Below, one piece after another: positions 1 to 12,383 of a stretch of 12,383 nucleotides of DNA. The DNA is from a virus. Made by a program: the position numbers and the translations under genes. The DNA lies in UHGV virus genome UHGV-1630673; one strand, written 5' to 3'. Within the stretch, counting starts at the first letter, position 1. Every line of letters begins with the position of its first letter. The notes under the pieces are model-generated. The model did no database searches and had not been told where the DNA came from. It worked only from the letters and a program-made list of their open reading frames with translations.

Positions 1-1
1 C

Positions 2-109: not shown

Positions 110-118
110 GGGATTTAT

Positions 119-1339
119 ATGTACCAGAAAAAATCGGCTGACGATCAGCCACAAAGTATTGGTGAAATCTCCTCCCAGCTCACCATGGTGATTGATCAGG
201 TCAAAAACTTCGGCGAAGACGTGAAGAGAAAAATGGAGGCAGGAGAAACCGTTTCGCTGGAACTGAAACAAAGAACGGACGAAAGCCTTAATCAGATGAA
301 CGAGCTGAAAGAACGTCTCACTGAGCTGGAGCAAAAAGGTGCACGCCGCCCGAACGATGCACCTGCACAGCGAAAATCGCTCGGTGAGCTGGTGGTCGAA
401 AGTGAAGAGTTCAAAGGCATGGACAGTTCGGCCCGTAAGAGCATCCGCGTCAAGCTGGAACAGAAAGATATTATGAACGTGCCGGCGACTACGGGCACTG
501 GCGTGAGCGCAACAAACAGTCTGGTTGTATCCGATCGTGTTCAGGGCATTATCGCACCACCGGAACGCACTCTTACCATCCGTAACCTGCTGATCCCCGG
601 TAATACTGCATCCAACGGTATTGAATTCGTTCAGGAAACGGGGTTTACCAATAATGCTGCAGCTGTGGCGGAAGGTGCCCTCAAGCCAAAATCAGACATT
701 AAGTTTGAGCTGAAAAGTGCGCCGGTACGTACCATTGCGCATTATTTTAAAGCGTCCCGTCAGATCCTGGACGATGCGCCCGGTCTGGCCAGTTATATCG
801 ATGGCCGTGCTCAGTATGGTCTTCGCTTTAAAGAGGAGCAGCAGTTGCTGAGCGGCGATGGCACCGGCGCGAATATCCTCGGTATTCTGCCGCAGGCAAC
901 AGAATTTGCTCCAGCGCTTACCCTGTCCAACGCCACGCCGATCGACCGTCTTCGCCTGGCTGTTCTGCAGGCCGTTCTTGCAGAATATCCGGCGTCTGGT
1001 TTTGTACTGAACCCGATTGACTGGGCAGGCATCGAGTTGACCAAAGATAACGAAGGCCGCTACATCATTGCGCAGCCGGTCAATGGTGGTGTTCCACGTA
1101 TCTGGGGGCTTCCTGTTGTGGAAACTCAGGCTATGGCGCAGAACAACTTCCTGACTGGAGCCTTCAACATGGCTGCGCAAATCTTCGATCGCATGGATAT
1201 CGAAGTGCTGCTCTCCACTGAGAACGAAGATGACTTTATTAAAAACATGGTCACCATTCGTGCGGAAGAGCGTCTGGCATTAGCAGTTTATCGTCCGGAA
1301 GCATTTGTCACCGGTAATGTAACCGCTTCTGGCGGCTGA
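119..1339 (+). CDS. Major capsid protein, HK97-fold, with N-terminal delta (scaffold-like) domain
   Basis: 406-aa ORF with AAGGGA Shine-Dalgarno 108-113, 5 nt before ATG 119. The first ~100 residues are charged and coiled-coil-like (ISSQLTMVIDQVKNFGEDVKRKMEAGE...LKERLTELEQKG), typical of the HK97 gp5 delta domain; the remainder has the size and character of HK97-family capsid proteins. High GC, followed by a hairpin terminator. Confidence 0.88.
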   Translation: MYQKKSADDQPQSIGEISSQLTMVIDQVKNFGEDVKRKMEAGETVSLELKQRTDESLNQMNELKERLTELEQKGARRPNDAPAQRKSLGELVVESEEFKGMDSSARKSIRVKLEQKDIMNVPATTGTGVSATNSLVVSDRVQGIIAPPERTLTIRNLLIPGNTASNGIEFVQETGFTNNAAAVAEGALKPKSDIKFELKSAPVRTIAHYFKASRQILDDAPGLASYIDGRAQYGLRFKEEQQLLSGDGTGANILGILPQATEFAPALTLSNATPIDRLRLAVLQAVLAEYPASGFVLNPIDWAGIELTKDNEGRYIIAQPVNGGVPRIWGLPVVETQAMAQNNFLTGAFNMAAQIFDRMDIEVLLSTENEDDFIKNMVTIRAEERLALAVYRPEAFVTGNVTASGG

Positions 1340-1346
1340 CAATTCA

Positions 1347-1372
1347 GGGCCGCTTAGCGGCCCTCTCTTTCT
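1347..1372 (+). terminator. Intrinsic terminator-like hairpin after the capsid gene (probably partial/attenuating)
   Basis: Perfect 7-bp GC stem GGGCCGC (1347-1353), loop TTA, GCGGCCC (1357-1363), followed by a pyrimidine/T-rich tract TCTCTTTCT (1364-1372). The T tract is interrupted by C, so termination is probably incomplete. Confidence 0.5.
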
Positions 1373-1384
1373 GAGGAGATTGTG

Positions 1385-1639
1385 ATGGCCAGAAAAAATG
1401 TGGCTGAACCGTCTGTATCCGACGGTAAAAATGTGGCGCCAGAACCCTCTGAGTCCGGGACTATTCAGGTTCAGCCTGTCCGGCGTTTTATGGATGGCGA
1501 CATTTTCAGGACGCCTGCCGATGATCCTTTTCATGTCTCTCGCTTACGTGCTGCCGAGCTCAAAGGTAACGGGCTGGTGACGATAGTTGGTGAAGTCCCT
1601 GATAACAAAATGAACCGCGCCCCCGAAACCAAAGGGTAA
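1385..1639 (+). CDS. Small head-module protein of unknown function (84 aa)
   Basis: GAGGAG Shine-Dalgarno 1373-1378, 6 nt before ATG 1385 (the ORF track begins at GTG 1382). Stop TAA 1637-1639 overlaps the next start ATG 1639 (TAATG coupling). No family recognised. Confidence 0.6.
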   Translation: MARKNVAEPSVSDGKNVAPEPSESGTIQVQPVRRFMDGDIFRTPADDPFHVSRLRAAELKGNGLVTIVGEVPDNKMNRAPETKG

Positions 1640-1977
1640 TGGTTATGACGGTAATCAACACTGAAACAGCCATGGAACATCTCAGGCTGGATGATGAAAT
1701 CGATAAAACGATGGTGGAGGGGTATCTTGCCGCTGCGGAGGATGCTGCTATGCAGTTTCTTAACCGACGCTTTTTTGCTGACCAGGCCGCGCTGGATAAC
1801 GCAATTGAAAATGAAGGCGCCGGCGATCGCCCAATTATTATCACGCCCTCTATTCAGAGTGCGGTTCTTCTTATACTGGGCTGGCTATATGAAAACCGTG
1901 GGGATGACCTGGGTCATGATATCCCTGGCCCTGCGCGTTGGTTGCTTAATCCCTATCGCATCGATATGGGGGTATAA
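1639..1977 (+). CDS. Head-tail connector protein (phage gp6-like family)
   Basis: 112-aa ORF; N-terminal segment TAMEHLRLDDEIDKTMVEGYLAAAEDAAMQFLNRR matches the characteristic N-terminal pattern of gp6-like head-tail connector proteins. Position after capsid is consistent. Translationally coupled to the upstream ORF. Confidence 0.75.
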   Translation: MVMTVINTETAMEHLRLDDEIDKTMVEGYLAAAEDAAMQFLNRRFFADQAALDNAIENEGAGDRPIIITPSIQSAVLLILGWLYENRGDDLGHDIPGPARWLLNPYRIDMGV

Positions 1978-2042
1978 AAATATGGCCTGCGAAGGGTGCC
2001 GCCGTCGGCGTGAATGGTTAAAAAAGTGGACGAAAATTGCCT

Positions 2043-2240
2043 ATGAACGAGCAACAGGTAAACGCGCTGATAGCAGCGCTGAGCGAACAAACAGCAGCAC
2101 AGAGAGAGCAGACGGAAGCGATAAACCGCCTGGCTGAATCAAACATGGCTCTGTGTGATGTGATCATTCAGTCTCTGGCCGGTGAAGAGGATGTGCAGGC
2201 AGAGCCGAAAACCTATCTCAGCGGAAAACCCAGGGGGTGA
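2043..2240 (+). CDS. Small hypothetical protein (65 aa)
   Basis: ORF in the 265-bp gap between connector and head-tail joining genes; protein MNEQQVNALIAALSEQTAAQREQTEAINRLAESNMALCDVIIQSLAGEEDVQ... looks like a real helical protein. Stop 2238-2240 abuts the next start 2242. Shine-Dalgarno is weak (GTGGA 2026-2030); the ORF track starts at TTG 2037. Confidence 0.45.
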   Translation: MNEQQVNALIAALSEQTAAQREQTEAINRLAESNMALCDVIIQSLAGEEDVQAEPKTYLSGKPRG

Positions 2241-2241
2241 T

Positions 2242-2574
2242 ATGCAGGCCGGGAAATTGCGTCACAGGGTTATCCTGCAGGAGCCGGTAAAAGAGCAGAG
2301 CCCGACAACGGGCGCCGTAATCAATACCTGGCGCGATGTCGCAACCATCTGGGCCGAAATCTCCCCCTTATCTGCGCGGGAGTTTATCGCGGCCCAGGCA
2401 TCACAGGGCGAGATAACAACGCGTATAACGATTCGCTACCGGGCGGGCGTCACCAGAAAGCACAGGATTCTGTATCGCGATGGCATTTACAACATTGAAG
2501 GCGTTTTACCAGACCCGCGCAGCGGCAGGGAGTATCTGACGCTGCCCTGCTCAGAAGGGGTGAATGATGGCTGA
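2242..2574 (+). CDS. Head-tail joining / head closure protein (110 aa)
   Basis: GGGGGTGA upstream of ATG 2242. Protein MQAGKLRHRVILQEP...IWAEISPLSAREFIAAQA...ITIRYRAGVTRKHRILYRDGIYNIEGVLPDPRSGREYLTLPCSEG shows the typical pattern of phage head-tail joining proteins (GKLRHRV..LQ, RYR, Y.I..V.D..GR.E.L.L.C.E). Stop overlaps the next gene. Confidence 0.75.
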   Translation: MQAGKLRHRVILQEPVKEQSPTTGAVINTWRDVATIWAEISPLSAREFIAAQASQGEITTRITIRYRAGVTRKHRILYRDGIYNIEGVLPDPRSGREYLTLPCSEGVNDG

Positions 2575-3106
2575 TGGTGTAGAGGTTAACCTTACCGGGC
2601 TTGAGTCGGTGCTGGGCAAGATGGATGCTGTCTCACAGGTGACCCGCAATAAAACCGGGCGTGCAGCGCTGCGTAAAGCAGCAAACGTCATCCGGGACAG
2701 GGCCCGCAGTAATGCCGCTCGTGTTGATGACTTTCTTACTAAAGAAGCCATCTATAAAAATATTGTCGTCAGTTTCAGCAGCAAAGCCTTTCGCAGAACG
2801 GGCGACCCAACCTTTCGTGTAGGGGTAATGGGCGGAGCAAGGCAATATGCCAATACAAAGGCCAATGTGCGAAAAGGCAGGGCGGGTAAAAGTTATAATA
2901 CAGCCGGAGATAAAGGCAATCCCGGTGGTGATACCTGGTACTGGCGATTTCTGGAATTCGGGACCGAGCATATGGCTGCGAGGCCAATACTACGCCCGGC
3001 AATGAATGGCGTGGATACTGACGTAATTAATATTTTCGCTGTGGAACTGGAAAAGGCTATCGATCGTGCCGTCCGTAGCGCAGCCAAAAAAGGAACGTCC
3101 GTATGA
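2567..3106 (+). CDS. HK97 gp10-like tail component protein (179 aa)
   Basis: Contains WYWRFLEFGTEHMAARPILRPA, a close match to the conserved FLEFGT...ARPF(L)RPA signature of HK97 gp10-family proteins. Start ATG 2567 (track 2564, tandem ATGs) overlaps the upstream stop at 2572-2574. Confidence 0.75.
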   Translation: MADGVEVNLTGLESVLGKMDAVSQVTRNKTGRAALRKAANVIRDRARSNAARVDDFLTKEAIYKNIVVSFSSKAFRRTGDPTFRVGVMGGARQYANTKANVRKGRAGKSYNTAGDKGNPGGDTWYWRFLEFGTEHMAARPILRPAMNGVDTDVINIFAVELEKAIDRAVRSAAKKGTSV

Positions 3107-3468
3107 TAGCTCCAATATTCTCTGTCTGCGCGGCAAGCCAGGCTGTAAAGGATTTATTGGGTACCAACCCCGTCAGGCTCTATCCCTTCGGGATACAGGA
3201 TGACAATATCGTTTACCCCTACGCGGTCTGGCAAAACATTGGCGGCTCTCCTGAAAATTACCTGAACCAGCGGCCAGATGCTGATCACTACTCTCTTCAG
3301 GTTGATGTTTATGGTGATACCGATGCAGATGTAATTGCCGTGGCCCACGCATTGCGTGATGCCATCGAAGGGAAAGCCTATATTACCCGGTGGGGAGAGC
3401 AAAGCCGTAATGATTCCACGATGAAATACCGCTATTCCTTCGATGTTGACTGGATCGCGTCCAGGTAA
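3103..3468 (+). CDS. Tail completion / tail terminator-like protein (121 aa, DUF3168-like pattern)
   Basis: AGGAA Shine-Dalgarno 3091-3095; ATG 3103 overlaps the upstream stop (ATGA). N-terminal pattern SQAVKDLLGTNPVRLYPFGIQDDNIVYPYAVWQ resembles tail completion proteins encoded immediately upstream of major tail genes. The family call is tentative. Confidence 0.6.
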   Translation: MIAPIFSVCAASQAVKDLLGTNPVRLYPFGIQDDNIVYPYAVWQNIGGSPENYLNQRPDADHYSLQVDVYGDTDADVIAVAHALRDAIEGKAYITRWGEQSRNDSTMKYRYSFDVDWIASR

Positions 3469-3486
3469 CCAACAACCCTAAACTGA

Positions 3487-3512
3487 CCCGCTTTGAGCGG
3501 GTTTTTCTATTT
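3487..3512 (+). terminator. Intrinsic terminator-like hairpin upstream of the major tail gene
   Basis: CCCGC (3487-3491), loop TTTGA, GCGGG (3497-3501), followed by TTTTTCTATTT (3502-3512). It sits between the tail completion gene stop (3468) and the major tail Shine-Dalgarno GGAGA (3515-3519). Confidence 0.5.
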
Positions 3513-3525
3513 ATGGAGACTAAAA

Positions 3526-4017
3526 ATGTCTGTATTAACGCAAGGCACACAGTTCTTTGTTCTGAAATCTGGCGTGGTCAGCGAGGTTGAATGTATCACT
3601 AGCTTCAATCCCGGCGGCAACCCCGCCGATCAGATTGAAGATACCTGCCTGAGTGAACGGGATTCCAGAACCTACAAAAAAGGTCTGAAAACGCCAGCGG
3701 CTGCAACTGTCGGGCTCAATGCTGACCCGACGAACGCCAGCCACATCATGCTACATGGCCTTGCAGAAGCTAATGACCAGGCGTCATTAACTTTTGCCGT
3801 TGGCTGGTCAGATGGCACCAGCGTTCCGACCGTTGCCGCTTCCGGCGATGAAGATGCTGTTGATGGTCTGGTGCTTCCATCTGATCGCACCTGGTTTATT
3901 TTCCAGGGCTATGTTTCCGATTTTCCATTCGATTTTCAGGGCAATGCGGTTGTGACGACCTCTGCCACCATTCAGCGCTCGGGCTCTTCAGTATGGGTTC
4001 CGAAAGCCGCCGCGTAA
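3526..4017 (+). CDS. Major tail (tail tube) protein (163 aa)
   Basis: GGAGA Shine-Dalgarno 6 nt before ATG 3526 (track start 3493 is a TTG inside the terminator). Its position immediately before the chaperone G/GT pair, its size, and motif resemblance to lambda gpV N-domain-like tube proteins ([12 protein letters not shown]..., [10 protein letters not shown]..., [11 protein letters not shown]) support the call. Hairpins flank the gene on both sides. Confidence 0.75.
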
Positions 4018-4024
4018 CCATTAT

Positions 4025-4050
4025 GCCCGGAAATCCGGGCTTCACTATTC
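4025..4050 (+). terminator. Hairpin / attenuator after the major tail gene
   Basis: GCCCGG (4025-4030), loop AAAT, CCGGGC (4035-4040), then TTCACTATTC. The stem is perfect but the U tract is weak, so this may be a partial terminator or a stabilising hairpin. Confidence 0.4.
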
Positions 4051-4060
4051 AGGAGTTGAA

Positions 4061-4444
4061 ATGCAGCTTACTCTCGATACGTTAAAAGAAACCGGGGCAT
4101 TCACTGGCCGCCCGGTAGAGAAAGAAATCAAATGGAAAGGTCGTGACGGGCAAGAACATATTGCAACCGTCTTTGTACGTCCTATGGGCTACCACACCAC
4201 TAAAGCTGAACTGCTGGCGTATAACGGCAAATCAGATCCGGTGGCTGGGCGTATTGCCGCCCATATCTGTGATGAGGAAGGCAAGCAAATCTTCACCGAG
4301 GCGGACATTCTCGGAACTGCATCTGAAGACCGTGGTGCACTTGATGGCCCGATTGTTATTGCCTTGCTGACCGTAATTCAGGGAGTCAACGAGCTGGGAA
4401 AGACTACGAACTCACAGGAGAAGACGAGTTCTGGTGTGAGTTAG
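4061..4444 (+). CDS. Tail assembly chaperone (lambda gpG-like), zero-frame product (127 aa)
   Basis: AGGAG Shine-Dalgarno 4051-4055 and ATG 4061. Position between major tail and tape measure genes. Contains an in-frame slippery heptamer near its 3' end; stop TAG 4442-4444. Confidence 0.8.
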   Translation: MQLTLDTLKETGAFTGRPVEKEIKWKGRDGQEHIATVFVRPMGYHTTKAELLAYNGKSDPVAGRIAAHICDEEGKQIFTEADILGTASEDRGALDGPIVIALLTVIQGVNELGKTTNSQEKTSSGVS

Positions 4445-4710
4445 TCATGAACGGCATTGGCGGGAGAACGATCGAGGAGGCTCAGGAGCGAATGAGCCTC
4501 CGTGAGTTTCAGATATGGGTAAAGTACCGCAATAAGTATGGTCAGCTTAACAACATGATGCGAACCGAGTGGGGGGCCTCGATGGTCGCTTCTGTTCTGG
4601 CGAACATCAATAAGGCGAAGAACACGCCTACTTATAAGGTCAGTGACTTTGCGCCCCATATCAATGAATCCCCTTTGTCGCTTCAAGATGCCATGAAAAA
4701 TTGGCACTGA
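4061..4710 (+). CDS. Tail assembly chaperone G-T fusion made by -1 frameshift at 4396-4402 (predicted ~216 aa)
   Basis: The -1 frame downstream of the slip site encodes DYELTGEDEFWCELVMNGIGGRTIEEAQERMSLREFQIWVKYRNKYGQL...ASVLANINKAK..., resembling the lambda gpT-like domain pattern. The T-frame ATG at 4447 has no Shine-Dalgarno, consistent with expression only as a fusion. Confidence 0.75.
4396..4402 (+). other. Programmed -1 ribosomal frameshift slippery heptamer G GGA AAG
   Basis: GGGAAAG at 4396-4402 lies in the G reading frame as G|GGA|AAG (codons 113-114 = Gly-Lys), the same heptamer and phasing as the phage lambda G/GT shift site. The -1 frame is open from 4402 to TGA 4708-4710, with no stop across the junction. 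Confidence 0.8.
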
Positions 4711-4773
4711 TAACTGTTAAATGCAGTGCAGGATCACTATCATCAGTAAACTAATAACTACTGGGATAGGGAT

Positions 4774-5151
4774 ATGAAAAAGTTAATTTTCGCTTTAGTA
4801 CTTGGCGCATCCGCTTTAACAATTACTGGCTGCGCCCCAACAGTCCAGAAAATCGACTACAACCAGAAATCTATGCTTCTATCTCTTGGGATGAGCAAAA
4901 ACGATGTTATGCAGATTATGGGATCGCCTAGAAGGACTGATGTTAACCCAGAGCGCGAACGCTGGATTTATTGGAATAAGTCTCTATACGGCTACACTAT
5001 TATCGATAACGAACAATTAGCTAATGATCGACTAGTTGTTACGTTTGTAAGCGGGAAAGTGGCTAAGTGGGGCCAACAAACATTGGCTGATGATGTCATG
5101 GAATCATCACAAAAAACCGCCCAAGCTTATGCCGAGGCACTTAAAAAATAG
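4774..5151 (+). CDS. Moron: predicted outer-membrane lipoprotein with BamE (SmpA/OmlA)-like motif pattern (125 aa)
   Basis: N-terminus MKKLIFALVLGASALTITGC is a signal peptide with lipobox ITG|C; residue +2 is Ala, so outer-membrane sorting is predicted. Mature part LSLGMSKNDVMQIMGSPRR...ERWIYWNK...LVVTFVSGKVAKW follows the BamE-like pattern (GM[ST]..V...G[ST]P...W.Y...[LV]TF..GK[LV]). The gene is clearly AT-rich relative to the head genes and is followed by a strong intrinsic terminator. Confidence 0.8.
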   Translation: MKKLIFALVLGASALTITGCAPTVQKIDYNQKSMLLSLGMSKNDVMQIMGSPRRTDVNPERERWIYWNKSLYGYTIIDNEQLANDRLVVTFVSGKVAKWGQQTLADDVMESSQKTAQAYAEALKK

Positions 5152-5172
5152 TCGCTTAAATTAAATTATGAA

Positions 5173-5195
5173 CCTCGCCTCGGCGGGGTTTTTTT
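5173..5195 (+). terminator. Intrinsic terminator after the lipoprotein moron
   Basis: CCTCG (5173-5177) pairs with CGGGG (5184-5188) (5 bp including one G-U pair, 6-nt loop), followed by seven T residues (5189-5195). Confidence 0.6.
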
Positions 5196-5213
5196 ATGCC
5201 TGGAGAAAACTTA

Positions 5214-7754
5214 ATGGCTGGAAAATCCCTTGGTACATTAACAATTGACCTGATAGCAAAAGTAGGCGGATTTGTTCAGGGGATGGATAAGGCTGAAAGG
5301 TCGTCCCAAAAATGGCGCGATCAGGTAAAAAAAGACGCTAAAGAGGTTGGGGCATCCCTGGCTGCTATTGGCGTAGCAGCAGCTACTGCTGCCGTTGGAA
5401 TTGGCATTGCTGGTCTGGCGATTGTAAAAAACACCGCTCAGCAGGTAACTGAGGCTGACAGGTGGGCAAAATCATTAAAAATGTCCACTCAAGATTTATT
5501 ATCCTGGCAATACGCAGCTGAACAAGCCGGTTTAACTGGCGATAATATTGCAGATATTTTTAAAGATATTAACGATAAAGTCGGCGATGCGGTTCTGAAC
5601 AAATCAGGTGAGGCTGCTCAGGCACTGGATACTCTCGGGCTTTCAGCTCAGAAGTTGGCCCAGCAATCCCCTGACAAGCAACTGATGGCTATCAGTGGAG
5701 CATTACAGAAAATCCCCTCTCAGGCCGGGAAAACCAATATCCTCGAAAGTCTGGGTAATGACCTGTCAAAAATGTTGCCGTTGTTCGATAACAATAACGA
5801 GAAATTGAAGCAATTTATCCAGTTGTCAAAAGATTTTGGTGTCGCACCTCCCCAGGAAGATATTGATAATCTGGTTAAAGTTAATCAGTTCTTTCAGGAT
5901 ATCGAGACCAGCGCGCGCGGCATGAGGATGGAAATTGCATCAGGTCTAGCAAAAATTGATCTGTCACCTTTGCAGGATGGGCTGGATGATATTCGAGACG
6001 TATTTACTGATCCTGCTGTTCTTCAGGGTATTTCGGACCTTGTAGGTGAGGCAATCAGTCTTGCAGGAGTGGTTGGCCGAATAGCTGGTGGTTTGGGAGC
6101 TATCGCATCCTATACACGCTCTCGCGTTGGTGCCGTATCAGGGAATTACGATGCTTCCGATCTAAACGACGTAGAACAGCGTATTGAATTCCTGAACAAG
6201 AGAGGTAACCAGAGTAAGGAACAAAAAGAAGAGTTAGATTTTTTAAACAAGCGCCGTGATTTTTTGCAAGCAATCAAAGGATCGATACTCACCCCAGAAG
6301 AATCACAAAGGGCCGCGAAGGGGATGCAGTCCTTGCTTTCTGACATGGACATAGAGCCGAACACCACTGATAATTATAATCTTGGTAAAGATGAATCGAA
6401 CCAGAAGCAAACTGCTAAGAAAAACCCAACTGATAACGCATTCAAAAGTAGATTACTAGACTTACAGAAACAAGCTGCACTTATTGAAACTACTGGTAAA
6501 AAAACAGCTGAAGTTACAGAGCTTGAAAAAATAAATTTTGATATTGCCAGTGGGAACCTGAAAAAATTATCTGAGGATCAAAAAGAACAGCTTCGTATTG
6601 CTGCAAAAACACTTGACTCTAAAAAAGAAGAACTGCGACTTAACCAAGAGAATGCAAAGGTTGCAGAATATATTTCCGGTTTAACAAGGCAAAACAAGCT
6701 TGTCCGACAGGGATATGATAACGAAATTATGGGTCTTTCTTTGGGAAGTAAGGACCGTGGCAGAATGCGAGAGTTAAATGGCATTCAGCAGGATTTCGAA
6801 TCGAGACAAGAGGAACTTTTAAATCAACTTCAGTCTGGTGATATTGATAATAGTTTATATGATAAAAAGAAAGAGGCGTTAAAGGATGCACTTAAAGAAC
6901 GCTTGCAAATACAGGAAAGTTATTATCAGGAGTCAGATGATTTACAAAGTGATTGGCAATCTGGCATCTCAAGTTCATTAGCTGACTTTGCTGACATTTC
7001 TAGTGATTACTACCAGCAAGCAGCTAATGCGATGACATCGATACTGGGTTCAGCTACTGATTCCATCTCTGAGCATTTATATAATGTTATCGATGGTACC
7101 GAGTCGATGGGAGAAGCTATAAAAGGTATTTTTGCAGATCTTGGTGAATCTGTGATTCAAGCTCTTGTCGATATGGCTGCTCAATGGATTGTGTACCAGG
7201 GTGTCCAAATGCTGGTTAACAAATCAGTACAGGCCTCTGCTATTCCTGCAATGATTGCTAATGCACAGGCTACTGCATTACAGGGTCAACTTGCCGCTTT
7301 TGCTTCAACCGCCGCAATACCAATAGTTGGGCCTGCAATGGCTCCAGCAGCCATGGCTGCTGCCGCTGCTGTAACGCAACCAATGGTTGCTGCTATATCC
7401 GTCGCTTCAATATCAGGTATGGCGCATGATGGCATTGACTCAGTACCAAAAACAGGAACCTGGCTCCTACAGGAAGGTGAACGAGTTACCACAGCTAAAA
7501 CCAGTGCAAAGTTGGATGCTACGTTGGATCGGGTAGCGAACCAGTCAACCGGCGGTGGCGCTATCTATGCCCCAAATATCACCATTCCTATCAATGGCAA
7601 TCCTTCAGATGCCACATTGTCGCTGGTACGTAAGGCGGCTGATGAGGGGGCTGAGCGCGGATATCGGAAAGCTGTTAACTCCATAGCCAGCGGGCAGGGT
7701 GATTTGCACAAGGTATTAATGGGGAAAACAAACTCGGGGAGGAAAATTGGCTGA
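5214..7754 (+). CDS. Tail tape measure protein (~846 aa)
   Basis: Longest gene of the tail module, immediately after the chaperone pair. Features: N-terminal hydrophobic segment (LAAIGVAAATAAVGIGIAGLAIV), long charged helical centre, and Ala/Gly-rich hydrophobic C-terminal region (AAFASTAAIPIVGPAMAPAAMAAAAAVTQPMVAAISVAS). GGAG 5202-5205 is 8 nt before ATG 5214; the track start ATG 5196 sits directly on the terminator T-run with no Shine-Dalgarno. Confidence 0.85.
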   Translation: MAGKSLGTLTIDLIAKVGGFVQGMDKAERSSQKWRDQVKKDAKEVGASLAAIGVAAATAAVGIGIAGLAIVKNTAQQVTEADRWAKSLKMSTQDLLSWQYAAEQAGLTGDNIADIFKDINDKVGDAVLNKSGEAAQALDTLGLSAQKLAQQSPDKQLMAISGALQKIPSQAGKTNILESLGNDLSKMLPLFDNNNEKLKQFIQLSKDFGVAPPQEDIDNLVKVNQFFQDIETSARGMRMEIASGLAKIDLSPLQDGLDDIRDVFTDPAVLQGISDLVGEAISLAGVVGRIAGGLGAIASYTRSRVGAVSGNYDASDLNDVEQRIEFLNKRGNQSKEQKEELDFLNKRRDFLQAIKGSILTPEESQRAAKGMQSLLSDMDIEPNTTDNYNLGKDESNQKQTAKKNPTDNAFKSRLLDLQKQAALIETTGKKTAEVTELEKINFDIASGNLKKLSEDQKEQLRIAAKTLDSKKEELRLNQENAKVAEYISGLTRQNKLVRQGYDNEIMGLSLGSKDRGRMRELNGIQQDFESRQEELLNQLQSGDIDNSLYDKKKEALKDALKERLQIQESYYQESDDLQSDWQSGISSSLADFADISSDYYQQAANAMTSILGSATDSISEHLYNVIDGTESMGEAIKGIFADLGESVIQALVDMAAQWIVYQGVQMLVNKSVQASAIPAMIANAQATALQGQLAAFASTAAIPIVGPAMAPAAMAAAAAVTQPMVAAISVASISGMAHDGIDSVPKTGTWLLQEGERVTTAKTSAKLDATLDRVANQSTGGGAIYAPNITIPINGNPSDATLSLVRKAADEGAERGYRKAVNSIASGQGDLHKVLMGKTNSGRKIG

Positions 7755-8233
7755 TGGCTATTACAACACCGATTAATTACCCCTCGGACTATTTGCCAGG
7801 ACCTCTTAAAGATAGTTTTGGTCTTAAGCCAGTTTCGCCGCTAAAAAGCACGCCAATTATTACTGGCAGGCGACGTCAAAGGCGTGCTTATACATCCGTA
7901 CCTACAGAAACAGATATTGCATGGCTCTTTGATGATGCCCAGGCGCAAGCTTTTGAGGCGTGGTACCGGGATGTGCTTTCTGATGGCAGCGCCTGGTTTA
8001 ATATGCCTTTGCTGACGCCTGTCGGACATAAGAATTACGTCTGCAGATTTACAGATATCTATAGGGGGCCGACGCCAGAAGGTGGTTTGTTCTGGCGCTA
8101 TGTTGCGCCCATTGAGTTATGGGAGCGTCCTATGCCTCCTGCTGGGTGGGGGTATTATCCAGAATGGATTACGGGTAGTTCGCTGCTTGATATTGCGCTG
8201 AACAAGGAGTGGCCGAAGCATGACGGTGATTAA
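7754..8233 (+). CDS. Minor tail protein (159 aa), tail-tip/distal tail component by position
   Basis: ATG 7754 overlaps the tape measure stop TGA 7752-7754; GGGGAGG at 7737-7743. First gene after the tape measure, so a tail-tip role is inferred from position. No family recognised. Confidence 0.55.
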   Translation: MAITTPINYPSDYLPGPLKDSFGLKPVSPLKSTPIITGRRRQRRAYTSVPTETDIAWLFDDAQAQAFEAWYRDVLSDGSAWFNMPLLTPVGHKNYVCRFTDIYRGPTPEGGLFWRYVAPIELWERPMPPAGWGYYPEWITGSSLLDIALNKEWPKHDGD

Positions 8234-8702
8234 CCAACTTTATGCCAGCAGCGGTTCTGAAGCCATTATTGAAACACTGCAAATAACTGTCGGAGATACG
8301 ATTCATTATATTTGCAATGGATATGAAGATATCACCGCCACCACAGAAGGAGGGCAAACAGTAACGTTTATAGCGGGAGGAATTGAAATTGCTCTACCAG
8401 CCAGGAACAGTGATGGGACACAAGATTTAAAATTTGTGGTCGGTAACATTGATGGTGAGGTCTCAACAATCATTACGGATGCGTTGGACGACCTGAGTGA
8501 ATCGTCATTGACCTATCGGAATTACACTTCTGATGATCTGTCTGCACCCGCTTCCCCTCCCTATACGCTGAAGCTGAAGCCCGGCTACTGGACGGCTCTT
8601 CAGGCACAGCTTACGGCAGGGTATCTGAATGTACTTGATACGGCCTGGCCCCGTAATCGTTACAAGTTGCCATTCTTCCCTGGACTTCGCTACACGAACT
8701 AA
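8220..8702 (+). CDS. Minor tail protein (160 aa), tail-tip component by position
   Basis: AAGGAG 8204-8209 upstream of ATG 8220; overlaps the upstream gene by 14 nt. Tandem stops TAA TAG (8700-8705) are followed by a terminator. Function inferred from position. Confidence 0.55.
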   Translation: MTVINQLYASSGSEAIIETLQITVGDTIHYICNGYEDITATTEGGQTVTFIAGGIEIALPARNSDGTQDLKFVVGNIDGEVSTIITDALDDLSESSLTYRNYTSDDLSAPASPPYTLKLKPGYWTALQAQLTAGYLNVLDTAWPRNRYKLPFFPGLRYTN

Positions 8703-8726
8703 TAGGTAAGCGAACCAACAAATCTA

Positions 8727-8749
8727 CCTCGCATTGACGAGGTTTTTTT
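8727..8749 (+). terminator. Intrinsic terminator (second copy of a repeated motif)
   Basis: CCTCG (8727-8731), loop CATTGA, CGAGG (8738-8742), then seven T residues (8743-8749). Shares the 16-nt string GGTTTTTTTATGCCTG with the terminator at 5187-5202. Confidence 0.6.
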
Positions 8750-8773
8750 ATGCCTGTGATTTGCGGAGGCGTG

Positions 8774-9154
8774 ATGTTCAAACAGGAAAAATATGAATCC
8801 GTTGTCTGGCTGAAAGGTGGTCGTGATTATCCAAATCTCGACTGCTTCGGCCTTATCAATGAAGTTCGGCGGGACCTCGGTCTACCCGCCTGGCCGGATT
8901 TTGCAGGAGTGACGAAAGATGATGGTGGTCTCAACCGTGAGGCCAAAAAATTGATGATATCGCTGACCCGTTGTGAGCCCAGCGAAGGGGCTGGGGCTGT
9001 TTGCTATTCCGGGTCCACCGTCACACATGTTGCCGTTGTCGTGCGGATTGGCGATCAGTTGCTTGTTGCAGAGTGCAACCCGCAAACAAACGTGACATTT
9101 CTTCCTCTGTCTCGTTTCAAACGGCGGTTCGTTAAAGTGGAGTTCTGGCAATGA
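8774..9154 (+). CDS. NlpC/P60-like (papain-fold) tail protein, lambda gpK-type peptidase domain (126 aa)
   Basis: Candidate catalytic Cys in NLDCFGL, downstream His in THVAVVV, and a polar residue ~17 aa later (AECN), spaced as in NlpC/P60 domains. Position before the host-specificity gene fits. Start is ambiguous: ATG 8750 has no Shine-Dalgarno, while ATG 8774 is 4 nt after GGAGG (8765-8769). Stop overlaps the next start (ATGA at 9151-9154). Confidence 0.55.
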   Translation: MFKQEKYESVVWLKGGRDYPNLDCFGLINEVRRDLGLPAWPDFAGVTKDDGGLNREAKKLMISLTRCEPSEGAGAVCYSGSTVTHVAVVVRIGDQLLVAECNPQTNVTFLPLSRFKRRFVKVEFWQ

Positions 9155-12100
9155 CCATCAGATTTTACCCGTCCCGCCTGCCTGGTGAGCCGCTGGAAAC
9201 CCACGAACATGGCGCGATGTCCTTTCATGAATGGATGGTAAAGAATGTAAAAGAGTATCGGGAGCAGGAAAAACATCCGATTGCGGTTGAAGTGGGGGGC
9301 ATTAACGTTCCTCCTCATGAGTGGCCACTTTGCTTTATCAAACCTGAAAGTGATGTTCGAATTTATCCGGTCCCCTTCGCAACGGCTGCTGCCGTTGCAG
9401 CATGGGCGGCGCTGGCGATTGCTGCTGCCTCAGCTGTTTATGTTTTGATCACAATGTCCAATATGGACAAAGGCGGATACTCTTCATCGAGCGGCACTGG
9501 TCTTGATTTAAATCCGGCAAAAGCCAATACCGCAAAATTGGGTGACCCCATCCGGGAATTATTCGGGCGCTATCGTGTATACCCTGATTATGTTGTGCAA
9601 CCGGTCACTCGCTTTGACCCGAACGACCCGACGATCATGCGTGTGGAAATGCTCCTTTGCGTGAGTGTTGGCAATGTCGCGTTCACAAATGGTGATATTC
9701 GTGTCGGCGAGACTCCAACCACAGCGCTTGGGGAGTCGTTCTCCCATGATGTTTACCCACCAGGCTCTGATGTGTCGGCAGATCGTCGCAGTGAAAACTG
9801 GTACAACTCGACTGAAGTGGGCGGTACGTCAAGCGGGACGGGCCTTGATATGGCTCAAACCTCTCCTGACTCAACGGACATCACCGCTGACAGTATGACT
9901 GTTTCCGGTGCATCGGTGACATTTAACGGATTAGACGACGATAACGATGATGACGATGAAGGGAATGCGTTGCCAGAATCGTGGGTGACGGGAACTATTG
10001 TAACTATCGTTGCGCCAACCAATTATCTGGTTTCAACCTCATCGGGTTATAGCGTTCTTACCAGCGATACGCTGGCGGAAATTAATCCAGCCGCCGGAAT
10101 GCCAGTCACGCTGGAGATTAACGGTGCAGAATATGACCTGGTGATCGCAACGTATACCCCAAAACAGGATGCGGTTCCTGGTGTCGGGGGAGGTGCTGCT
10201 GCTGTACGTGGAAATGCTGCACCGACAACCTATGATTTTTCCACATCGGGACAGACATTTGATTTAACCTGGAATGCAACTTCCTTCACCGTCTCCCTTG
10301 TAGCTGATTATCTGAATATGTCAGGACTTCTGGCGGCAATTAATGAAGGGCTGACGGGGTCGGGGCTGGTTGCTCAGGATGATGGCGGTGTTGTGCGGAT
10401 AGTTGAAATATCCAGCCCGTGGAGGGGCGGAAATATCACATCATCAGCACTCCCCGTTTCTGTTTTTGGTGACACACCGGAATTTACTGCTGGTACGCCC
10501 TCAAGTGGTGGAAGTCCTGCGATCACGGCTAATGTTACGCTCGCTTATGGTCGCGCAACTGGTGCGGCATTCTCGGGAATTCCGGAGGGGACACAGCGGC
10601 TTTCTCTGGCTCATCGTGGTAACGAATATCGGATTGCTGATGCTGACGGTACTACAGCAACGGTTCAGCGTGTGGTCGAAGGTGTTGTTGATCCTTCTTG
10701 GTTGGGGTTTGCCCCGCGCACGATGATCGATTATCAGGCTACGGGTATTAACGACAATAATACCTGGATGGGGCCGTTTCTTGTTTGTCCTGAAAATGAA
10801 GTTGTGGACGCCTTCGAGGTGAACTTCTCATTTCCTTCCGGGATTTGCGGTTTTGACAACAAAGGCAAAAAGCGTATCCGCCATTGTGAATGGGAAATTC
10901 AGTACCGCGTTTATGGTTCTGGTGCCGGATGGGCCAGCCGCGAAGGCGTTTATGCTCTGCAAAACGTCAATGGCCTGGGATTTACTGAACGGTTTGATCT
11001 CAGCACTCCCGGCCTTGTCGAAGTTCGTTGTCGCCGCCGGAACGAGCAAGGGAGTAACAATGCTCGTGATTCTATGTACTGGCAGGCATTGAGAGGGCGG
11101 TTACTTTCACGGCCTGCATCTTATCCTGGCGTTACGCTTCTGGCGGTGACGGTGGAAACCGGCGGGAAGCTGGCCGCTCAGTCTGATCGGCGAGTGAACG
11201 TTGTCGCAACGCGAATTTATGACAAAGGTGCGGCAAGAAGTATTTCAGGTGCGTTGTATCATGTTGGTGGTTCGCTTGGACTTGATATGGATACTGAGGC
11301 CATTGATCTTCTGGAAACCACGGTATGGACACCCAATGGTGAGTATTTCGATTTCGCTGCTGGTGACAGTATCTCTGCCCTTGAAATGCTTCAGAAGATT
11401 GCTAATGCCGGGAGGTCCTATTTCCTGCTGAGTGATGGACTGGCGTCTGTAGGGCGGGAAGGGGTTAAGCCGTGGACCGGGGTTATCAGCCCGCATGAAA
11501 TGACCGAAGAGCTGCAAACAGCCTTCACCCCGCCATCTGATGATGATTATGATGGCGTTGATGTCACTTATATCAACGGTACAACGTGGGCAGAAGAGAC
11601 GGTGCAATGCCGTATGCCTGGCAACCCTACACCTTTTAAAGTTGAAAACTATGAACTTGACGGCGTTCTTAACCGAGATCACGCCTATCAGATAGGCATG
11701 CGCAGGCTGATGAAATATCAAAAGCAGCGGCGTAACTATTCAACGACGACCGAGCTTGACGCGCTTTGTTATAATTACGGGGATCGTATTTTGCTGACGG
11801 ATGATATCCCTGGAAATAAAACGATTAGTTGTCTTGTTGAAGCAATGAACACAGCAGACGGGGTCACAACGTTCACGGTTACGGAGCCGCTCGACTGGTC
11901 ATTTGAAAATCCACGGGCAATCCTGCGTTATCAGGATGGCTCGGCTTCCGCTTTGCTGGTGGCCTCAGCGGTTGGTGACTATCAGCTGTCTGTTCCATAT
12001 GACTCAGAGTTTGACGGGATCATATTAAATGATCCGTATATCGAACCGCCGCGTCTGATTTTCTGCACATCTTCACGCAGGACATACGACGCGATTATAG

Positions 12101-12207
12101 AAGAGATTGCGCCTCAATCCGATGGTACATGCCAGGTGACTGCCCGTCAGTACCGTGATGATTTCTACGCCTACGACGACGCCACATACCCCGGCGACGT
12201 CGCTTAA
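9151..12207 (+). CDS. Host-specificity / tail tip central fibre protein (gpJ-like), 1018 aa, with gpI-like N-terminal region
   Basis: Largest ORF at the distal end of the tail module; GGAG 9139-9142 is 8 nt before ATG 9151. N-terminal ~190 aa contain an Ala-rich hydrophobic segment (FATAAAVAAWAALAIAAASAVYVLI) followed by LGDPIRELFGRYRVYP, resembling the lambda gpI pattern. The remainder has the size and character of gpJ-like proteins. Acidic tract LDDDNDDDDEG at ~9931-9963. Confidence 0.8.
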   Translation: MTIRFYPSRLPGEPLETHEHGAMSFHEWMVKNVKEYREQEKHPIAVEVGGINVPPHEWPLCFIKPESDVRIYPVPFATAAAVAAWAALAIAAASAVYVLITMSNMDKGGYSSSSGTGLDLNPAKANTAKLGDPIRELFGRYRVYPDYVVQPVTRFDPNDPTIMRVEMLLCVSVGNVAFTNGDIRVGETPTTALGESFSHDVYPPGSDVSADRRSENWYNSTEVGGTSSGTGLDMAQTSPDSTDITADSMTVSGASVTFNGLDDDNDDDDEGNALPESWVTGTIVTIVAPTNYLVSTSSGYSVLTSDTLAEINPAAGMPVTLEINGAEYDLVIATYTPKQDAVPGVGGGAAAVRGNAAPTTYDFSTSGQTFDLTWNATSFTVSLVADYLNMSGLLAAINEGLTGSGLVAQDDGGVVRIVEISSPWRGGNITSSALPVSVFGDTPEFTAGTPSSGGSPAITANVTLAYGRATGAAFSGIPEGTQRLSLAHRGNEYRIADADGTTATVQRVVEGVVDPSWLGFAPRTMIDYQATGINDNNTWMGPFLVCPENEVVDAFEVNFSFPSGICGFDNKGKKRIRHCEWEIQYRVYGSGAGWASREGVYALQNVNGLGFTERFDLSTPGLVEVRCRRRNEQGSNNARDSMYWQALRGRLLSRPASYPGVTLLAVTVETGGKLAAQSDRRVNVVATRIYDKGAARSISGALYHVGGSLGLDMDTEAIDLLETTVWTPNGEYFDFAAGDSISALEMLQKIANAGRSYFLLSDGLASVGREGVKPWTGVISPHEMTEELQTAFTPPSDDDYDGVDVTYINGTTWAEETVQCRMPGNPTPFKVENYELDGVLNRDHAYQIGMRRLMKYQKQRRNYSTTTELDALCYNYGDRILLTDDIPGNKTISCLVEAMNTADGVTTFTVTEPLDWSFENPRAILRYQDGSASALLVASAVGDYQLSVPYDSEFDGIILNDPYIEPPRLIFCTSSRRTYDAIIEEIAPQSDGTCQVTARQYRDDFYAYDDATYPGDVA

Positions 12208-12238
12208 TACCCCATAAAAACCCCTTATTAACTCTTTT

Positions 12239-12272
12239 CGCACAAACCCTCGTTTGCGCGAAGCCTCTTTTT
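12239..12272 (+). promoter_or_regulatory. Imperfect hairpin with downstream T-run between the host-specificity gene and the next gene
   Basis: CGCACAAAC (12239-12247) pairs with GTTTGCGCG (12252-12260) with one mismatch, loop CCTC; a TTTTT run (12268-12272) lies 7 nt downstream. Not a canonical terminator geometry. Confidence 0.3.
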
Positions 12273-12284
12273 GGAGCAAAAAAC

Positions 12285-12383
12285 ATGGCTGCAGATCTGA
12301 ATCCGCCGCTGGGTACGACGACGCCTGAAATCTTTTTAGATAACGTTAAGCGGGCCGATCGGTTAGTGAACGGGCCGGAGGAA
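12285..12383 (+). CDS. 5' end of next gene (3'-truncated by window edge); unknown, possibly tail fibre or accessory protein by position
   Basis: GGAG 12273-12276 is 8 nt before ATG 12285; open frame MAADLNPPLGTTTPEIFLDNVKRADRLVNGPEE runs to the window end. Only 33 codons are visible, so function cannot be assigned. Confidence 0.45.
   Translation, partial: MAADLNPPLGTTTPEIFLDNVKRADRLVNGPEE

Follow-up and report, generated by a model that had tools for sequence, protein, structure and literature searches.

A low-GC trough across the moron slot and tape measure gene of virus genome UHGV-1630673 probably layers a swappable cassette on an old AT-rich tape measure type

Introduction

Why does one part of a prophage tail gene cluster carry markedly fewer G and C letters than the genes around it? 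In the window, by which we mean the whole 12,383-nucleotide stretch of virus genome UHGV-1630673 analyzed here, a preliminary description placed a lower-GC block at 4711–8702, covering a lipoprotein gene, the tape measure protein (TMP) gene and two minor tail genes, and read it as a product of modular exchange with a lower-GC lineage. The locus raises the questions of how far the block extends and how old it is. The features concerned are as follows.

4061–4444, plus strand: tail assembly chaperone G (Pfam Phage_TAC_13, 3e-30; phrog_1749)
4396–4402, plus strand: slippery heptamer of the lambda type (G GGA AAG), read in the G zero frame
4447–4710, plus strand: T segment of the chaperone (G-T fusion; Pfam Phage_tail_T, phrog_337)
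4711–5195, plus strand: moron cassette (leader, lipoprotein gene, terminator hairpin)
4711–4773, plus strand: cassette leader, with ribosome-binding region and possible weak promoter
4774–5151, plus strand: cargo lipoprotein, 125 aa (predicted signal peptide, lipobox ITGC, BamE/OsmE-like domain)
5170–5195, plus strand: intrinsic-terminator-like hairpin, 9 bp with a T7 run (−14.6 kcal/mol, z = −3.1)
5196–7754, plus strand: TMP open reading frame (phrog_2854, 3e-291; Pfam Tape_meas_lam_C)
5196–7505, plus strand: TMP codons 1–770, synonymous AT shift (GC3 ~0.35–0.37 versus 0.51)
6156–7235, plus strand: K/E/Q/N/D-rich TMP center (41% of residues versus 24% elsewhere)
7506–7754, plus strand: last 82 TMP codons (GC3 ~0.52, no synonymous deficit)
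7754–8702, plus strand: two minor tail genes (159 aa, phrog_384; 160 aa, DUF1833/phrog_396)
8726–8749, plus strand: orphan terminator-like hairpin with T-run, in a 71-nt gap (−8.1 kcal/mol, z = −2.3)

Results

The trough ends inside the TMP gene

Maximum-likelihood one-block segmentation placed the best single block at 4601–7280, with a GC content of 0.423 versus 0.513 outside and an LLR of 34.3, which was reached by none of 200 shuffles of 30-nt chunks (null mean 5.6, maximum 12.3). At third codon positions, segmentation gave 4996–7508 as the best block (GC3 0.352 versus 0.506), and GC3 was 0.377 in the lipoprotein and TMP genes together versus 0.506 in all other genes (chi-square p = 4e-12). 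The trough is beyond chance, but it is shorter than first described. Its left boundary at 4711 was placed correctly, since the T segment immediately upstream has a GC3 of 0.64, a sharp edge; the G gene before it has normal composition (GC 0.51, GC3 0.50) and belongs to the upstream backbone. The right boundary at 8702 was wrong: GC returns to ~0.50 by ~7200–7300 and GC3 to normal by ~7505, so that each recovers before the TMP gene ends. The two minor tail genes, with GC contents of 0.492 and 0.468 and a joint GC3 only marginally lowered (0.448 versus 0.513, or 0.45 versus 0.51 rounded; p = 0.03), lie outside the trough.

Whole-window GC is 0.494, with 0.521 in the capsid gene and 0.513 in the large tail gene at 9151–12207. 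The 60-nt counts that had suggested the block were nearly right: the low lines at 6481–6540, 6541–6600 and 6841–6900 measure 0.267, 0.367 and 0.267, the lipoprotein gene, put at about 40%, measures 0.421, and 841–900 measures 0.633, as does 9361–9420, which had been given as 0.67. The two high-GC lines are local peaks above the averages of their genes.

On either side of the trough, two further junctions were analyzed. The −1 frame is open from the slippery heptamer to the T stop at 4710, and we infer a −1 G–T frameshift at 4396–4402. Beyond the minor tail genes, the hairpin at 8726–8749 resembles the remnant of another moron slot. The gene after the gap probably starts at 8774, with a Shine–Dalgarno sequence (SD) GGAGG at 8765–8769, and a Logan gene call for it has 126 aa; the homologous gap is 9 nt in three relatives (L005, L010 and L070) and 506–757 nt with an open reading frame in four others (L003, L032, L033 and L074).

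A swappable cassette occupies a known moron slot

The left part of the trough, the lipoprotein gene with a GC content of 0.42 and a GC3 of 0.41, is an AT-rich cassette open to exchange and seated in an established moron slot, which supports the modular exchange suggested for it: in relatives the slot is empty or holds unrelated cargo, and gene 15 of HK97 lies at the equivalent position. In a survey of about 105 loci (about 230 with a second set), the slot was empty (−17 to +3 nt) at some and at the others held 350–730 nt, and up to 3.6 kb, at a GC content of 0.23–0.44. At least 12 unrelated AT-rich cargos were found among relatives, with 18–22% pairwise identity; a 125-aa protein in L001 and a 123-aa protein in L002, for example, are unrelated to the window cargo. 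The leader is conserved across cargos, as L012 and L016 are homologous to the window up to 4781 though their cargo proteins differ. It contains a −10-like TATCAT at 4738–4743 that may act as a weak promoter, while no promoter upstream of the lipoprotein gene passed a consensus scan. At its right end, every occupied slot examined carries a hairpin with a T-run whatever the cargo, followed by the conserved SD and TMP start; in the window this is the hairpin and T7 run at 5170–5195.

The first moron to be named, HK97 gene 15, separates the tail assembly chaperone genes from the TMP gene (Juhala et al. 2000; Cumby et al. 2012; reviewed in PMC3594210). The window cassette shares this slot, which is empty in HK022, and likewise consists of a small AT-rich open reading frame (GC 0.33 in HK97, 0.42 in the window) followed by a hairpin and T-run that abut the TMP start, where HK97 has an annotated terminator. 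Both cargos are small envelope proteins, that of the window by prediction, but gp15 is a 62-aa YebO-like inner-membrane protein and the window cargo an unrelated 125-aa BamE/OsmE-like lipoprotein. The HK97 TMP is of another N-terminal type, and its GC3 dips only mildly (0.46 versus about 0.55–0.60).

The lipoprotein matches phrog_18614 at 2.8e-66 and Pfam BamE at 25.2 bits, just over the curated cut-off of 23.2. With its lipobox, BamE match and weak OsmE match it resembles BamE/OsmE (SmpA_OmlA) outer-membrane lipoproteins; it differs from them in NCBIfam scores far under the cut-offs, in an extra C-terminal helical tail and in being phage-borne. The OsmE and YgdI/YgdR matches fall under the cut-off, and a sequence search for a relative of solved structure found none. 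T5 Llp is a superinfection-exclusion lipoprotein. Cor of phi80, N15 and HK022 is a prophage lipoprotein that blocks FhuA-dependent phages (PMC3594210). Like both, the window protein is a small phage or prophage lipoprotein encoded in or beside the tail gene cluster; no sequence similarity to Cor or Llp and no PADLOC match was detected, and an exclusion function is only an analogy.

The TMP deficit is mostly synonymous

The true TMP start is probably the ATG at 5214, with SD GGAG at 5202–5205: alignments of relatives and profiles begin at residue 7, and the homologous ATGGCT is the TMP start in empty-slot phages. Partition of the TMP deficit of −7.1 GC points gave −1.7 for amino acids and −5.4 for synonymous choice. 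All segments as far as codon 770 have a synonymous deficit (−0.027 to −0.088), versus 0.000 in codons 771–852; over codons 1–770, GC3 is lower in 14 of 16 amino-acid families (Ala, for instance, 0.20 versus 0.51). The deepest part of the trough (GC 0.35–0.42) coincides with the K/E/Q/N/D-rich center, where an amino-acid-driven deficit is added.

These figures bear on the idea that the trough is purely an artefact of a Lys/Glu/Asn/Gln-rich coiled-coil. The central 360 residues, whose coiled-coil state is assumed from composition rather than predicted, are 41% K/E/Q/N/D, and this composition accounts locally for −0.04 to −0.07 of the deficit. However, amino acids explain only −0.017 of the whole-gene deficit of −0.071, the N-terminal third is synonymously shifted, and so is the Ala/Gly-rich segment 7236–7505, in which the amino-acid effect is +0.078; the shift of 14 codon families and the existence of GC-rich homologous TMPs also speak against it. 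The partition contradicts this explanation, to which we give almost no credence. The dip is not confined to the coiled-coil part. Relatives do share the composition, which the preliminary description had named, together with such confinement, as evidence against its own reading.

AT-richness is probably an old property of the TMP type

Without exception, every fetched relative that shares 66% or more TMP identity has the same trough in the same place. In these relatives TMP GC is 0.44–0.47 versus 0.52–0.58 in the flanks. The last 10–12% of the gene in relatives has a GC3 of 0.45–0.54 versus 0.32–0.41 for the remainder, much as in the window. Against L010, L006, L016, L043 and L045, synonymous sites are saturated (pS 0.72–0.82), and TMP GC3 is 0.35–0.40 in these phages, with a range of 0.34 to 0.69 in the large tail gene. 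Polarized recent synonymous changes in TMP codons 1–770 are balanced (W>S 157, S>W 151), which gives a flux equilibrium of ~0.38 versus an observed GC3 of 0.37; flanking genes are biased toward S>W, with ratios such as 240:371 and 17:50. Codon usage in the window TMP correlates with that of other TMPs at r = 0.85–0.92 and with its own flanks at 0.80. This test uses parsimony on terminal branches, where point mutations and short imports between AT-rich TMP alleles are inseparable, and the relatives are non-independent samples. From the shared trough, the saturation and the balanced flux, it follows that the AT-richness would be an old and stationary TMP-type property of the allele class rather than a recent import into this genome. 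Acquired DNA reportedly drifts toward resident composition, as in the amelioration model of Lawrence and Ochman. The TMP resembles unameliorated islands in that its synonymous-site composition differs from that of the surrounding genes; unlike in that model, AT-to-GC and GC-to-AT changes offset each other, and the deficit has outlived saturating divergence.

The original reading, that 4711–8702 was recently imported as one block from a lower-GC lineage between two repeated hairpin motifs, has some support. The left compositional edge meets a homology break at 4698–4712 versus several Klebsiella phages, 8702/8806 is a real mosaic joint versus the closest relative, L005, and the deficit is mostly synonymous. 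However, composition is normal from ~7280 (GC) and 7505 (GC3) rather than 8702, the minor tail genes barely deviate, the trough is retained in every relative at or above 66% identity through saturated synonymous divergence, and the balanced flux gives no amelioration signal. L005 is collinear with the window over 1–8702 at 89% identity, so this genome is not distinguished by the block as a unit. The hairpin/TTTTTTTATGCC motif is not specific to the block; these phages commonly carry this terminator/ribosome-binding-site junction, at many of their gene boundaries. Recent joints (~1954/1981, 3200, 7000–7200 and 8702/8806) lie mostly away from the compositional edges: positions 1–1954 are 97% identical to Kp4866-6 and 1982–4712 83% identical to other Klebsiella phages, and identity to L005 drops at ~3200, ~5400, ~7000–7200 and 8702/8806 and climbs again at ~6200. 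A recent four-gene import is contradicted in its extent as well as its timing, and we consider it very improbable; with the trough shared by relatives, no net drift to higher GC and joints elsewhere, the claim of an exchange specific to this genome is not supported. Pervasive mosaicism is described for HK97/HK022-like lambdoid phages in PMC3594210, citing Juhala et al. 2000. The window shares with them sharp identity changes at or near gene boundaries versus different relatives, and morons of deviating GC; unlike that mosaicism, its TMP trough is not framed by recent joints and is conserved in an allele class rather than forming a one-genome patch.

GC-rich TMPs exist in the wider family (GC3 0.57 in HK022, 0.60–0.67 in Atlantibacter and L133-type phages), so the low GC3 is not intrinsic to the protein and an ancient foreign origin in an AT-richer phage pool is possible. 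By this account, the ancestor of the allele class (codons 1–770, perhaps with the adjoining slot) was imported, and AT-biased mutation without selection for GC-ending codons kept it AT-rich. L045 and about 20 others, with 49–54% TMP identity, offer a fitting phage type: their genome GC is 0.47–0.49 and their TMP GC 0.45–0.49, with no trough and an empty slot. Window TMP codon usage fits the flanks of L045, a 47%-GC phage type (r = 0.84, the best match among flanks), slightly better than its own flanks. Moreover, the point at which composition changes is fixed and lies close to a strongly conserved motif of the TMP (G741–V780 invariant), a possible crossover site. Yet the TMP tree does not place the window's clade inside the L045 type, and Rosenbergiella, the lowest-GC hosts found (flanks 0.48–0.49), have TMPs still 5 points lower. 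A scan of 185,579 species genomes with two peptide patterns found no donor, only relatives at or below 55% identity. We regard an ancient import as unlikely, though the most credible of the alternatives.

Slot occupancy accompanies AT-rich TMPs in one family

An unexpected lead is that an occupied slot accompanies an AT-rich TMP in the window/HK022-type family, while HK97-type TMPs lack the association. In one set of loci the dip was −0.008 ± 0.024 with empty slots (n = 24) and −0.081 ± 0.032 with occupied ones (n = 46); in another, 18 of 19 occupied slots had dips of −0.03 to −0.10, and about 41 empty ones lay at ~+0.01. Several sister-clade contrasts agree. Selection might be involved: a TMP below a constitutively expressed cassette might be kept AT-rich or rich in rare codons, either because H-NS binding or Rho-type termination stops toxic tail read-through in the lysogen, or because slowed TMP translation aids chaperone loading. 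The stationary composition fits such selection, as does an AT-richness that begins at the cassette and extends downstream only (T gene GC3 0.64, TMP 0.37). Against it, all HK97-type slots are occupied and dips there are small (−0.057 to +0.014), L169 and L095 carry a cassette beside a GC-rich TMP, and L043 (−0.06) and L073 (−0.076) have dips despite an empty slot. The samples are phylogenetically clustered, and the TMP GC skew is G-rich, unlike C-rich Rho utilization sites. We consider this proposal improbable.

Discussion

Based on these data, we propose that the trough consists of three superimposed layers, namely the moron cassette, a synonymous AT shift in the TMP gene and an amino-acid effect in the TMP center, none of which is a recent four-gene import; we give this reading a probability of about 0.6. 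The cassette is inserted after the T stop codon and ahead of the TMP ribosome-binding site. Its cargo open reading frames, AT-rich as in other morons, are swapped among phages, with cassette ends common to different cargos in some lineages. It may be transcribed independently in the lysogen, and the lipoprotein may have an envelope function such as superinfection exclusion. TMP codons 1–770 are written in AT-ending codons (GC3 ~0.36); the TMP class would rest at an AT-biased mutational equilibrium, with neighboring structural genes held, or assembled, at higher GC3. The K/E/Q/N/D-rich center adds its amino-acid deficit to give the deepest point, and the last 82 codons match the composition of the downstream tail-tip genes. 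Since the TMP is AT-rich in all close relatives, the trough would represent ordinary phage mosaicism and not the recent import of a block.

Gene layout and nearest relatives

The window represents the late structural genes of a temperate siphophage of the HK97/HK022-like kind, with the following features.

119-1339, capsid
between capsid and tail tube, head-tail connector genes
3493-4017, tail tube
4061-4444, chaperone G
4447-4710, T segment of the chaperone
4774-5151, 125-aa ORF (lipoprotein)
5196-7754, tape measure protein (TMP) gene
after the TMP gene and ahead of the J-like gene, three small tail-tip genes
9151-12207, J-like protein, 1018 aa

The TMP matches phrog_2854 (3e-291) and Pfam Tape_meas_lam_C (1.8e-10), and its gene follows the G/G-T chaperone genes and precedes the tail-tip genes, in synteny with HK022 and HK97, as expected of a TMP gene. 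In GenBank, the window is closest to Klebsiella prophage-derived phages and to two E. coli phages. An exact-protein look-up placed TMP on a single Logan contig of 9 kb (SRR3131830) and nowhere else; in E. coli complete genomes, the top match had 79.5-84.5% identity and covered part of the region, so the window does not derive from that collection. Within chaperone gene G, the zero frame contains the lambda-type slippery heptamer G GGA AAG (4396-4402), from which the −1 frame runs uninterrupted as far as the T stop (4710); programmed −1 frameshifting at this site is predicted to yield a G-T fusion. An Rfam scan of the whole window gave only a sub-threshold isrK sRNA match at 3440-3507 (20.4 bits, E = 0.82; gathering score 50), which we put down to chance.

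A real but shorter GC trough

A low-GC block at 4711-8702, spanning the lipoprotein gene, TMP and two minor tail genes, had been proposed in the preliminary description as a modular exchange from a lower-GC lineage. Its hand counts of sample lines were essentially correct (recomputed GC 0.633, 0.633, 0.267, 0.367 and 0.267); because the background is 0.51-0.52, however, the high-GC lines are local peaks only. In a 300-nt profile, GC falls from ~0.50-0.53 to 0.42-0.47 at ~4500-4700, reaches 0.357 at 6451-6750 and is 0.50 again by 7201-7500. One-block maximum-likelihood segmentation delimited 4601-7280 (GC 0.423 vs 0.513) with a log-likelihood ratio (LLR) of 34.3, the highest among 200 chunk-shuffles being 12.3, and a block defined on third codon positions covers 4996-7508 (GC3 0.352 vs 0.506). 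These results establish a genuine, non-random trough, with a left edge at 4711 as described but a right edge ~1.2-1.4 kb sooner than 8702. The two minor tail genes (7754-8702) fall outside it, with GC of 0.49 and 0.47 and a GC3 of 0.448 vs 0.513 that is only marginally low (p = 0.03). The observation is thus confirmed in part, and the interpretation attached to it is partly supported by the data below.

For each gene, we calculated the GC expected from its own protein sequence when encoded with the codon preferences of the remaining genes. The deficit of the whole TMP gene, −7.1 GC points, comprises −1.7 from amino acids and −5.4 from synonymous choice. From the lipoprotein gene through TMP codon 770 (nt 7505), every segment has a synonymous deficit, which falls to zero over the final 82 codons. 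TMP codons 1-770 have a GC3 of 0.37 vs 0.51, and GC3 is lower in TMP for 14 of the 16 codon families (e.g., Ala 0.20 vs 0.51, Thr 0.32 vs 0.61). Total GC recovers sooner (~7236) only because an Ala/Gly-rich segment lifts GC1 and GC2, with GC3 still at ~0.3. The TMP centre, codons 321-680, is 41% K/E/Q/N/D residues vs 24% elsewhere, and the trough is deepest there because amino acids and synonymous choice contribute about equally. Confinement of the dip to the coiled coil had been named as a point against exchange; the synonymous deficit across segments and in 14 of 16 families shows that the dip is not so confined.

A moron cassette in the HK97 gene-15 slot

HK97 gene 15, the first element to be named a moron, has the tail assembly chaperone genes on one side and the tape-measure gene on the other (PMC3594210). 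The HK97 record shows a layout like that of the window, with a gp15 GC of 0.33 and an annotated terminator adjoining TMP. The cassette at 4711-5195 separates the T stop from the TMP start and adds a further example of this known arrangement, with a moron occupying the HK97 gene-15 slot. Applying the Juhala/Hendrix definition, we found 485 nt of extra DNA in the slot, where the T stop and TMP start overlap or abut (−17 to +3 nt) in HK022, in Atlantibacter prophages, in a more distant TMP type represented by locus L045, and in others. The slot also deviates in composition (GC 0.41-0.42 vs 0.50-0.52 in the upstream genes); since the downstream TMP gene is AT-rich too, this contrast is one-sided. 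A terminator of its own is predicted at 5170-5195, a 9-bp GC-rich hairpin followed by T7 (−14.6 kcal/mol, z = −3.1). A sigma-70 consensus scan of 4711-4773 gave no match, the only conserved −10-like element being TATCAT with a poor −35; nothing was detected 5' of the lipoprotein gene, and promoter-like matches in 4000-9200 numbered fewer than the shuffle mean. Because the consensus scan gave no promoter, independent transcription of the cassette is something we infer.

The translated 125-aa ORF begins MKKLIFALVLGASALTITGC... and contains the lipobox ITG/C. Its match to Pfam BamE is marginal (25.2 bits vs a cut-off of 23.2) and that to NCBIfam OsmE falls under the cut-off; a strong match was obtained to phrog_18614, a family of unknown function. 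With a signal peptide, a lipobox cysteine and an SmpA_OmlA domain, the product fits a predicted bacterial lipoprotein of BamE/OsmE-like type. Searches with the lipoprotein against PADLOC defence models and PDB sequences yielded no meaningful match. By analogy to gp15 and Cor, the protein may act at the envelope, for example in superinfection exclusion.

In a survey of ~105 loci, the slot was empty, with overlapping or abutting T stop and TMP start, or else 350-730 nt long (maximum 3.6 kb) with a GC of 0.23-0.44. These loci carry at least 12 unrelated AT-rich cargos, chiefly lipoproteins, small membrane proteins and zinc-ribbon proteins; two relatives with identical gene order have unrelated products there, 125 and 123 aa in length (18-22% identity). 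Among the tail-module loci surveyed (L001-L277), we noted several lipoprotein families, a two-TM family (MKNFGWLLS...) and zinc-ribbon proteins (MALIKCKECGE...). The 63-nt leader (4711-4773) is common to the window and to relatives with a different cargo, and the terminator-like hairpin is kept downstream of different cargos; in the leader-sharing lineages, cargos are swapped between conserved cassette ends.

All occupied slots examined end in a hairpin and T-run followed by the conserved sequence (A/T)TGCCYGGAGAA...ATGGCT, which comprises a Shine-Dalgarno sequence and the real TMP start. In the window, the listed ATG 5196 falls inside the terminator T-run, and ATG 5214 has a Shine-Dalgarno GGAG at 5202-5205. 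Alignments of TMP with relatives and with profiles begin at residue 7, and phages with an empty slot use the homologous ATGGCT as the TMP start. Judged from these alignments, the TMP start is most likely ATG 5214 rather than ATG 5196.

The hairpin and TTTTTTTATGCCTG motif occurs twice, at 5170-5202 and 8726-8756, and both copies are a terminator/ribosome-binding-site junction that is common at many gene boundaries in these phages. The second copy includes an orphan terminator-like hairpin and T-run (8726-8749) in a 71-nt gap (8703-8773) between the second and third tail-tip genes. The homologous gap measures 9 nt in loci including L005, L010 and L070; in L003, L032, L033 and L074 it extends to 506-757 nt and contains an ORF (MKKYSTGNPILNL...). 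The gap in the window resembles a vestigial second moron slot, and the third tail-tip gene probably starts at 8774, not 8750.

The AT-rich TMP gene is old and stationary

Three GenBank relatives show a like dip over the slot and the first three quarters or more of TMP. HK022 has no dip (TMP GC 0.53) and an empty slot, although its TMP N-terminus is homologous. In a composition survey of 78 IMG/VR loci, every locus with at least 66% TMP identity had a TMP GC of 0.44-0.47 (GC3 0.33-0.43) vs 0.52-0.58 in the flanks, with the final ~12% of TMP back at 0.40-0.54. Since all these relatives share the trough, a recent import of TMP codons 1-770 into the window is not supported. Against five relatives (L010, L006, L016, L043 and L045), TMP synonymous sites are saturated (pS 0.72-0.82); GC3 is 0.35-0.40 in the TMP of all five, and 0.34, 0.47 or 0.63-0.69 in their J-like genes.

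Recent synonymous third-position changes were polarised by parsimony on terminal branches, using the nearest neighbour and two outgroups; the sequences are related, and short recombination imports are counted as changes. With imports so included, TMP codons 1-770 showed 157 AT-to-GC vs 151 GC-to-AT changes, an equilibrium GC3 of ~0.38 vs the 0.37 observed. The net flux to resident composition that amelioration entails was thus absent, and TMP is not drifting to the composition of its neighbours. The flanking genes had an excess of GC-to-AT change (AT-to-GC to GC-to-AT ratios of 240:371 in J, 17:50 in tube and 24:55 in mt3). This AT-biased recent change in the GC-richer flanks, counted over loci L001-L082, places their GC3 above flux equilibrium. 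If anything, TMP sits where AT-biased change would bring any unconstrained sequence. We conclude that TMP is a conserved, stationary AT-rich allele class. Low expression, given the few TMP copies per virion, was considered as a sufficient cause of the low GC3 and rejected, because equally low-copy tail-tip genes have a GC3 of 0.63-0.69 in relatives.

An ancient origin of TMP in an AT-richer pool is possible. The wider TMP family, found in prophages of many Enterobacterales, has a TMP GC of 0.43-0.57, usually but not always under the flanks. The L045 type (L045 and ~20 others, 49-54% identity) has an empty slot and a genome GC of 0.47-0.49, with a TMP of its own at like composition, and the codon usage of the window TMP correlates with flanks of this type at r = 0.84, with its own flanks at 0.80 and with those of L010 at 0.52. 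In the TMP tree, the window clade is not nested in the L045 type. A GTDB genome scan with the TMP profile found relatives of at most 55% identity, none from markedly low-GC genera, and no donor among them. In the same family, L084 (Pseudomonas lundensis I31, JAWQUI010000002.1) is an Enterobacterales-type prophage tail module, in a genome labelled Pseudomonas, with flanks at GC 0.50-0.54. Its TMP is 55% identical to that of the window and groups closely with IMG/VR contig L050 in the TMP tree; the module represents either a transfer across orders or an assembly that is contaminated or wrongly labelled.

Slot occupancy and TMP composition

In the window-type family, the dip (TMP GC relative to the flanks) is −0.008 ± 0.024 where the slot is empty (n = 24) vs −0.081 ± 0.032 where it is occupied (n = 46; Mann-Whitney p = 6e-10, for loci that are not phylogenetically independent). 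Several sister-clade contrasts in the TMP tree are in line with an AT-rich TMP beside an occupied slot. A second set, seeded with HK022, gave ~+0.01 for ~41 empty loci and −0.03 to −0.10 for 18 of 19 occupied loci. The exception, L169 (with L095 alike), carries a short zinc-ribbon cassette adjoining a GC-rich TMP. As a general rule, that an occupied slot implies an AT-rich TMP is rejected: an HK97-seeded set, of a different TMP type and with every slot occupied, has small dips only (−0.057 to +0.014). Together, these sets indicate that the link is real in one family and not universal.

For the window/HK022-type family, if the link survives phylogenetic control and is causal, an accessory cassette would shape the composition of the adjoining essential TMP gene, as a long-lived, downstream-only AT enrichment over ~2.3 kb. 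We regard this as unlikely, at somewhat less than one chance in five. By one route, selection would favour H-NS/Rho-type insulation of the late genes from a lysogen-active promoter; by another, cassette and TMP would be transferred together as one unit. Both insulation by selection and co-transfer are held with low confidence as causes of the link. Rho utilisation in TMP is disfavoured, as TMP is G-rich rather than C-rich.

Recent mosaic joints

Megablast alignments break in the window at 1954/1981 and at 4698-4712. The first is a sharp joint between head and tail modules: 1-1954 is 91-97% identical to one Klebsiella phage set (Kp4866-6 and others), and 1982-4712 is ~83% identical to another. 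The closest relative, L005, is collinear over 1-8702 (89%) and drops to 69% from 8702/8806. Within the collinear part, identity moves in steps, from 96-100% (1-3200) through 82-92% (to 4800), 90-96% (4800-5400), 77-88% (to 6200) and 93-94% (6200-7000) to 73-80% (7000-8700). The sole joint that matches a compositional edge is 4711; the joint at 8702 is genuine, yet both of its sides are GC-normal. Downstream, the third tail-tip and J-like genes (8806-12289) have ~69% nucleotide identity to every relative found and a GC3 of 0.47-0.52, far lower than the 0.56-0.71 of relatives, which suggests that the tail-tip/host-range module came from a lineage unsampled in the collections searched. For the tail-tip genes of the window overall, GC3 is 0.44-0.52 vs 0.53-0.71 in relatives. 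The mosaicism of the window is a new instance of known lambdoid mosaicism.

Discussion

When a prophage tail operon shows a GC dip, the dip should not be taken for a single transferred block; splitting amino-acid from synonymous effects and checking relatives alters the conclusion. For annotation, the analysis places the lipoprotein cassette in the classic HK97 gene-15 slot and corrects two start codons. That slot is a busy exchange point, and its mostly envelope-targeted cargos may act in superinfection exclusion or modify the host envelope. Of more specialist interest is a TMP allele class that stays at a GC3 of ~0.36 through saturating divergence, with neighbours at 0.34-0.69, and that is associated with slot occupancy in one TMP family. 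If this link is real, it bears on how mosaic phage genomes maintain their composition.
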